Source of the DNA: Escherichia coli | Lineage (GTDB): Bacteria > Pseudomonadota > Gammaproteobacteria > Enterobacterales > Enterobacteriaceae | NCBI RefSeq assembly: GCF_017348835.2 | Contig: NZ_CP071375.1 | DNA length: 64,000 nt | Strand: one strand, 5' to 3' | Shown here: positions 61,538-62,932 of the stretch, piece after piece | Numbering within the stretch: the first letter of the stretch is position 1 | How the letters are laid out: every line of letters begins with the position of its first letter | Translations under genes and position numbers: made by a program | The notes under the pieces: generated by a model | What the model was told of the DNA's origin: nothing | The model's database searches: none | What the model saw: the letters and a program-made list of their open reading frames with translations, nothing else

Positions 61538-62932
61538 ATGAAAAAATCGACATTATCTTTAGCCATCGGTTTATTATTGGCATGTAGTACCGGTATGGCA
61601 AAAACACAGCATTTAACGCTGGAACAACGCATGGCATTGCTGGAAGAACGCCTGGAAGCGGCAGAAATGCGGGCGGCAAAAGCAGAGAGCCAGGTTAAAC
61701 AGCTGCAGACACAACAAGCCGCTGAGATCCGCGAAATTAAGGCCGCTCAGGGCAATACGCCGGTAAATGGACAGGCAACGGCGGAATCTGCAAAGAAAAA
61801 TGCCACCTCACCTAATCTTTTGCTTTCAGGTTATGGCGATTTAAAAATCTACGGCGACGTAGAATTTAATATGGATGCGGAAAGTAATCATGGCCTGCTG
61901 GCAATGACCAACGCTGATGTGAATAGCGATCCCACTAATGAGCAGTGGAATCTCAATGGTCGTATTCTGTTAGGTTTTGATGGTATGCGAAAACTGGATA
62001 ATGGCTATTTCGCCGGGTTCTCCGCACAACCGCTGGGGGATATGCACGGTTCAGTAAATATCGATGATGCGGTATTCTTCTTTGGCAAAGAAAACGACTG
62101 GAAGGTCAAAGTAGGCCGTTTTGAAGCCTACGATATGTTCCCGTTGAATCAGGATACCTTTGTTGAACATTCCGGTAATACTGCGAACGATCTTTATGAC
62201 GATGGCAGCGGTTATATCTATATGATGAAAGAGGGCCGCGGGCGTTCTAACGCTGGCGGTAATTTCCTCGTCAGCAAACAACTCGATAACTGGTATTTTG
62301 AATTAAACACGTTACTTGAAGACGGAACATCTTTATATAATGACGGTAATTATCATGGACGTGATATGGAGCAGCAGAAAAATGTTGCTTATCTGCGCCC
62401 AGTAATTGCCTGGTCGCCGACGGAAGAATTCACCGTTTCCGCAGCGATGGAAACGAACGTGGTAAATAATGCTTATGGTTATACCGATAGCAAGGGTAAT
62501 TTTGTCGATCAGTCCGATCGTACCGGCTATGGTATGAGCATGACCTAGAATGGCTTGAAAACGGATCCGGACAATGGCATTGTGGTTAATCTTAATACCG
62601 CCTATTTAGATGCTAATAATGAGAAAGATTTCACTGCCGGGATTAACGCGCTGTGGAAACGTTTCGAGCTCGGTTATATCTACGCGCACAATAAGATTGA
62701 TGAATTCAGCGGTGTAGTTTGTGATAACGACTGCTGGATTGATGATGAAGGGACGTACACCATTCACACCATTCATGCGTCTTATCAGTTCGCTAATGTG
62801 ATGGATATGGAGAACTTTAATATTTACCTCGGGACGTATTACTCCATTCTGGATAGCGACGGCGATAAAAAACACGGTGATGATACTGATGACCGTTACG
62901 GCGCACGCGTTCGCTTTAAATACTTCTTCTGA
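61538..62932 (+). pseudogene. Outer-membrane porin-like gene interrupted by an in-frame TAG
   Basis: Track ORFs 61538..62548 and 62555..62932 share a frame, separated by one TAG (62546..62548: ...ATG ACC TAG AAT GGC...). N-terminal signal peptide with a lipobox-like LLAC, a coiled-coil segment, and a C-terminal ...RVRFKYFF beta-barrel signature. Confidence 0.65.

Follow-up and report, generated by a model that had tools for sequence, protein, structure and literature searches.

The window, i.e. the whole 64,000-nucleotide stretch of Escherichia coli DNA that was analysed, carries between frvA and rhaM a porin gene (rafY2, a RafY-family glycoporin or 'carbohydrate porin' gene) on the + strand at 61538..62932, which is a pseudogene of 464 codons plus TGA with one amber codon. 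Read from the sequence, the frame consists of ATG, 335 sense codons, TAG, 127 sense codons and TGA, i.e. 463 sense codons plus the amber codon, and the protein without the stop has 464 aa. The TAG at 62546..62548 (+ strand) is codon 337 and the sole in-frame stop inside the frame; the terminal TGA lies at 62930..62932 with a second TGA directly behind it. The ORF list divides the frame into 61538..62548 (336 aa) and 62555..62932 (125 aa), and gene callers report the remainder after the TAG as a leaderless ORF of 116-125 aa. The N-terminus (MKKSTLSLAIGLLLACSTGMA↓KTQ) is signal-like, the protein has a heptad-rich stretch (LTLEQRMALLEERLEAAEMRAAKAESQVKQLQTQQAAEIREIK), and its C-terminal end is ...RVRFKYFF.

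The gene is monocistronic, divergent from frvA over a 477-bp spacer and convergent with rhaM. Between the stop codons of rafY2 and rhaM we found a GC-rich hairpin (62940..62966) with a minimum free energy of -27.9 kcal/mol (z = -5.8 relative to shuffles), which is likely a bidirectional terminator of both genes. A consensus promoter and terminator scan of 60900-63100 gave counts that match the shuffle expectation.

For family searches, the query was the intact version of the protein from the nearest relative, E. coli PE164 (NZ_CP114128.1; pig, Nanjing). We found this protein matches the Pfam family PF16966 (Porin_8, "Porin-like glycoporin RafY") over the complete model (1-372 of 372) at residues 104-464 with E = 7.2e-154. 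Since this match runs from end to end, and since the frame is identical, except for base 62547, to the intact annotated gene of PE164, these comparisons indicate that the frame is a real gene and not a chance ORF. Residues 27-54 match PF11471 (Sugarporin_N, the ScrY/maltoporin N-terminal extension) weakly (E = 0.06), and several rafY2 homologues have PF11471 matches on record. PF02264 (LamB) was absent from the Pfam results for the porin, an NCBIfam scan of the porin found no family, and a PDB sequence search with the porin returned chance matches only (E above 0.6) and no solved family member. The product name given by PGAP to the intact gene is "carbohydrate porin".

Weaker DNA matches (86% identity) in complete E. 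coli genomes were found on plasmids and in a tRNA-Phe island, preceded by genes for a LacI-type regulator, an alpha-galactosidase, an MFS permease and a GH32 invertase. This gene order indicates the raffinose operon rafR-rafA-rafB-rafD followed by rafY. RafY encoded after rafRABD on the IncF plasmid pIncFIA has 464 aa, 79% identity over 450 aa, and Trp at 337. Similarly, RafY of plasmid pRSD2, like rafY2, has 464 aa, a signal peptide, an N-terminal coiled-coil helix, a barrel, and a C-terminal RFKYFF. Unlike the plasmid gene, which lies downstream of rafRABD, rafY2 is chromosomal, stands beside the rha operon with frvA and rhaM as its neighbours and without linkage to rafR-rafA-rafB-rafD, and is broken here by the amber codon. 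These comparisons argue that the gene is a chromosomal paralogue of RafY (rafY2) and not RafY itself.

The same gene at the same locus encodes the intact 'carbohydrate porin' WP_053884317.1 of PE164 and F2_81 (1 nt apart for PE164; TGG at 337), and the rafY2 of O157:H7, which is 18 nt apart, has TGG at 337 and encodes the full protein. In the literature, O157:H7 lacks rafRABD yet carries a homologue annotated rafY2 (PMC4809568). The passages that deal with RafY describe a glycoporin for maltose, sucrose and raffinose (PMC4809568; PMC4827864, citing Ulmke 1997 and Andersen 1998), and pore formation and oligosaccharide permeation are known, by the works cited there, for the plasmid RafY (PMC4809568; PMC4827864). 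The family is TCDB 1.B.15 with 16 predicted strands (PMC4827864), and RafY acts, according to the citation of Andersen et al. 1998 in PMC4827864, as a pore for general diffusion and not as a LamB-type channel. Our literature search on frvA, rhaM and the porin returned nothing relevant and no functional test of rafY2.

We built an AlphaFold2 model of the porin on a 58-sequence alignment and obtained a mean pLDDT of 81.6. In the model, residues 28-70 form one long helix, which is followed by a disordered linker and then by a barrel of 16 long strands (residues 100-463). As in classical porins, a long loop, here of 45 residues (195-240), separates strand 5 from strand 6. The helix and the weak PF11471 match point to an N-terminal periplasmic coiled-coil extension at 61619..61747 (+ strand), and Pfam, AlphaFold2 and Foldseek place the predicted 16-strand beta-barrel domain (residues 104-464) at 61847..62929 (+ strand). 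The best PDB matches found by Foldseek were the 16-strand trimeric porins BpsOmp38, OprB (4gey), OmpU, VhChiP and OprP, with E of about 1e-12 and TM of 0.45-0.6. These porins (OprB being from Pseudomonas) share 16 strands and the long strand 5-6 loop with the rafY2 model, but their sequence identity to it is only 10-15%. The 18-strand sucrose porin ScrY ranked 46 with TM of about 0.4. ScrY and LamB, both 18-strand sugar porins, likewise serve oligosaccharide uptake, and ScrY has an N-terminal coiled-coil extension (PF11471); however, rafY2 differs from them in that it has no Pfam LamB match and 16 modelled strands instead of 18. The 16-strand model and the low rank of ScrY agree with the general-pore behaviour of RafY as cited in PMC4827864.

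The porin is thus predicted to be a RafY-family outer-membrane beta-barrel with a signal peptide and a C-terminal aromatic residue. These results bear out the sequence-only reading, which had described a frame of roughly 463 codons broken by one TAG, with a signal peptide, an N-terminal coiled-coil and the C-terminal aromatic signature RFKYFF, and had likened the architecture to that of carbohydrate-selective porins: the codon count agrees, the modelled helix stands where the coiled-coil was read, and membership of the RafY glycoporin family supports the comparison. The homology search and structure prediction on the read-through protein that it had proposed gave the PF16966 match and the 16-strand barrel.

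The signal peptide covers codons 1-21 (61538..61600, + strand) with predicted cleavage at GMA↓KT. In the family alignment, the GxA↓K motif is conserved and Cys16 is not. Since a signal-peptidase I site is conserved and the cysteine is not, a lipoprotein reading of 'LLAC' was ruled out, and the alignment indicates that the porin is a normal Sec/SPase I substrate.

Over the 64 kb, the window differs from PE164 by 17 mismatches and three single-base gaps, mostly at the 3' end of the 23S gene and in the 23S-5S spacer. About six substitutions lie outside the rRNA operon, at 10232 (synonymous, in polA), 27724, 28949, 47112, 47845 and 62547, and three of the four from 27724 to 47845 fall in IS3 copies. 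With about 20 differences, about six of which are outside the rRNA operon, the window is a very close relative of PE164 and not PE164 itself. At the porin locus the single difference is base 62547: where PE164 has G, the window has A, which converts TGG (Trp) to TAG. We found TGG at codon 337 also in F2_81 (with the same protein accession as PE164) and in O157:H7. Residue 337 is aromatic in 52 of the 58 family members (W in 29, Y in 17, F in 6), and W337 lies at the end of strand 10 (328-338) in the AlphaFold2 model, with six strands after it. Hence, the look at this codon in related genomes that the sequence-only reading had called for gave a clear answer: the alignments indicate that the ancestral residue was Trp and that one G-to-A transition made the TAG. 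We searched 5,426 complete E. coli genomes with a 61-mer centred on the TAG. None of them matched it exactly, and 1,337 matches had 95-99% identity, a band that includes the 98.4% of a single mismatch. Because all relatives have TGG, the TAG is a private, recent mutation.

As a separate matter, 13 of the differences from PE164, including the three single-base gaps, are clustered at 3493..3660 (the 23S 3' end and the spacer before 5S). This cluster probably reflects rRNA operon copy variation or a choice made in assembly, and not point mutation.

The stop takes away residues 337-464, i.e. Trp337, strands 11-16 by the AlphaFold2 assignment, and the C-terminal aromatic motif. By the gene calls and the model, the untranslated remainder (residues 338-464; 62549..62929, + strand) holds strands 11-16 and the C-terminal FKYFF signal. 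The BAM complex recognises a C-terminal beta-signal ending in Phe, and unassembled outer-membrane proteins are degraded by DegP. Since six strands at the end of the barrel and the Phe signal at the C-terminus are removed, the model makes the amber copy almost certainly a null allele, which fits the earlier claim that the amber codon knocks the gene out.

In strains with an intact copy, the product would be exported by Sec, and BAM would then insert it in the outer membrane. There it would form a porin of 16 strands, probably a trimer, whose N-terminal helix would lie in the periplasm. By analogy with plasmid RafY, for which this has been shown, it may let di- and trisaccharides diffuse inward, and its presumed substrate range is taken from that analogy. 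In the amber strain, translation would end after strand 10, and the 336-aa product, without six strands and the aromatic signal recognised by BAM, would be unable to close a barrel and would be expected to be degraded in the periplasm. Because rafY2 is monocistronic and convergent with rhaM, no polar effect of the amber codon is expected. We consider it very likely that rafY2 lost its function recently through the nonsense mutation W337amber, a G-to-A change at 62547 that made TAG out of TGG.

The need for amber suppression had been raised from the sequence. If a suppressor tRNA or natural near-cognate decoding let the amber codon be read through at a sufficient rate, functional porin would be made, and rafY2 would be conditionally expressed and not dead. 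We regard this as very unlikely. It has in its favour, in general terms only, that in laboratory suppressor strains of E. coli UAG is the leakiest-tolerated stop; however, the TAG is not conserved, and every relative has TGG. The tRNAs within the 64-kb window are Ile-GAT and Ala-TGC only, both in the rRNA operon, and an Rfam scan of the whole window found no element in or beside the porin gene or near the TAG. To our knowledge, natural isolates rarely carry suppressors, and nothing points to one elsewhere in this genome, although natural read-through of UAG at a low level may occur. Since TGG is found in all relatives and the TAG is private, the suggestion that the gene needs amber suppression was not upheld.

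A sequencing or assembly error, with TGG as the true codon and an intact gene, would account for both the single base that separates the whole locus from PE164 and the lack of the TAG in all 5,426 complete RefSeq genomes. However, site 62547 is outside any homopolymer, and six runs, assembled independently of one another, gave the identical TAG allele. We found the exact 336-aa truncated product on 9-14 contigs in a collection of 15 billion proteins, and the loci from all six runs retrieved have TAG at 337 (SRR27418558, SRR27418881, ERR14374684, SRR33453117, DRR831788 and SRR19633709, which are separate deposits through SRA, ENA and DDBJ). Throughout the gene these loci do not differ from the window, and five agree with it over all of the sequence retrieved; the DRR831788 locus differs from the window at three flanking bases, all outside the gene. 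Hence, the worry about a sequencing error, raised along with the first description of the codon, is answered by six independent runs, and error is extremely improbable as an explanation. The amber allele is genuine, and the clone that carries it has been sampled on repeated occasions.

Gene finders call both pieces as ORFs, and the 336-aa protein or the downstream ORF of 116-125 aa might have a role of its own, be it in a split porin or as a periplasmic protein. We find this scarcely credible. The downstream piece has neither a signal peptide nor a convincing start, and the C-terminal BAM signal is missing from the upstream piece. In addition, only one clone carries the allele, which a single mutation separates from the intact gene, and such an architecture is absent from the family members seen, obvious fragments aside. 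W337amber as a recent null mutation is the reading we retain.

Other interrupted reading frames were seen in the window. The gene of the formate dehydrogenase alpha-subunit (fdoG; 51009..54059, - strand) appears as two ORFs owing to its selenocysteine TGA, and Rfam places SECIS_3 at 53419..53477, right after this TGA; this is a genuine recoded stop, in contrast with the porin TAG. The MFS transporter gene yihN (25058..26323, + strand) has an in-frame TGA at codon 103 (25364..25366) that is common to PE164, where it is annotated as 'internal stop', and the comparison indicates that yihN is likewise a nonsense pseudogene, the window's second, and that it arose before the porin one. Two inverted IS3 copies, each with an ALIL pseudoknot, lie at 28099-29312 (- strand) and 46749-47962 (+ strand), and the halves of a split transporter gene, probably yihO, abut one copy each (27173-28060, - strand; 46172-46693, + strand). 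This arrangement, which PE164 also has, suggests that IS3 mediated an inversion of about 17 kb across the sulfoquinovose (yih) cluster. An uninterrupted 632-aa ORF at 30499..32397 (- strand) corresponds to two PGAP features in PE164, 'hypothetical protein, partial' and 'transposase'; it had no match in Pfam or NCBIfam, and it is single-copy, chromosomal and full length in about 1,061 of the 5,426 complete E. coli genomes.

Among the 5,426 complete E. coli genomes, we found the full-length porin gene in 2,543 (about 47%), including B/BL21/REL606, strain C and O157:H7, and a gene-less filler of the K-12 type in 2,826; a subset of 657 genomes carries a filler variant that is 80-90% identical to the K-12 type. 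Hence, E. coli as a species has two alleles of the frvA-rhaM interval, one with the porin and one with the filler. In K-12, the interval has only 300 bp and no gene, just as the sequence-only reading had stated. When the frvA-rhaM region of K-12 was aligned to the window by blastn, K-12 homology ended at 61193 and restarted at 62972, with about 167 bp of unrelated K-12 sequence between these points, so that 61194..62971 is the segment that separates the porin allele from the K-12 allele. The K-12 filler corresponds to positions 2957..3123 of the K-12 locus compared.

Citrobacter species including C. rodentium have an orthologue that is 81-85% identical and lies in the same place and orientation beside rhaM, about 40-110 bp from the end of rhaM; on the other flank they have azlCD and an HTH-cupin regulator where E. 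coli has frvA. This synteny was obtained from exact-protein look-ups. Since the gene is common in E. coli and has a Citrobacter orthologue at the same position, the comparisons indicate that the porin gene is ancestral beside the rha operon and that the gene-less state of K-12 is derived. The insertion specific to one strain that had been proposed from the sequence is contradicted by the 2,543 genomes with the gene and by the Citrobacter orthologue.

For intact copies, we found dN/dS values of 0.054 relative to O157:H7, 0.025-0.06 relative to Citrobacter, and 0.14 relative to plasmid rafY, which points to strong purifying selection on intact rafY2 (0.025-0.14). Even so, rafY2 is dispensable. 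In other E. coli, the same porin gene is split into a piece of 113 or 122 aa and a piece of 342 aa, and some of these genomes have yiiG (DUF3829) and not frvA as the left neighbour. In strain HS30-1, an IS1A insertion at the porin gene has left only a 75-bp 3' remnant (3003..3077 of its locus), and many entries of this porin on record are "partial". Hence, rafY2 has been lost or broken several times independently in E. coli.

Because E. coli strains have broken or deleted the gene several times in independent events, its loss might be adaptive and not neutral. The amber allele might then mark a clone in which the shedding of an outer-membrane entry point, such as a phage or colicin receptor or an antibiotic route, was selected. 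Relatedly, because the porin keeps its position beside rhaM in both Escherichia and Citrobacter, it might be functionally tied to the uptake of rhamnose-containing oligosaccharides, and the rha regulon would in that case have a dedicated outer-membrane channel that was missed by K-12 studies. We hold these ideas to be improbable.

The gene itself is already known, as carbohydrate porin or rafY2 of the RafY family, and here it is a plain pseudogene; as one more strain-specific pseudogene, the finding matters little. The amber allele can serve as a convenient natural null and as a marker of its clone. About half of E. coli carry, by the rhamnose genes, a conserved RafY-type porin that is absent in K-12 and hardly studied.
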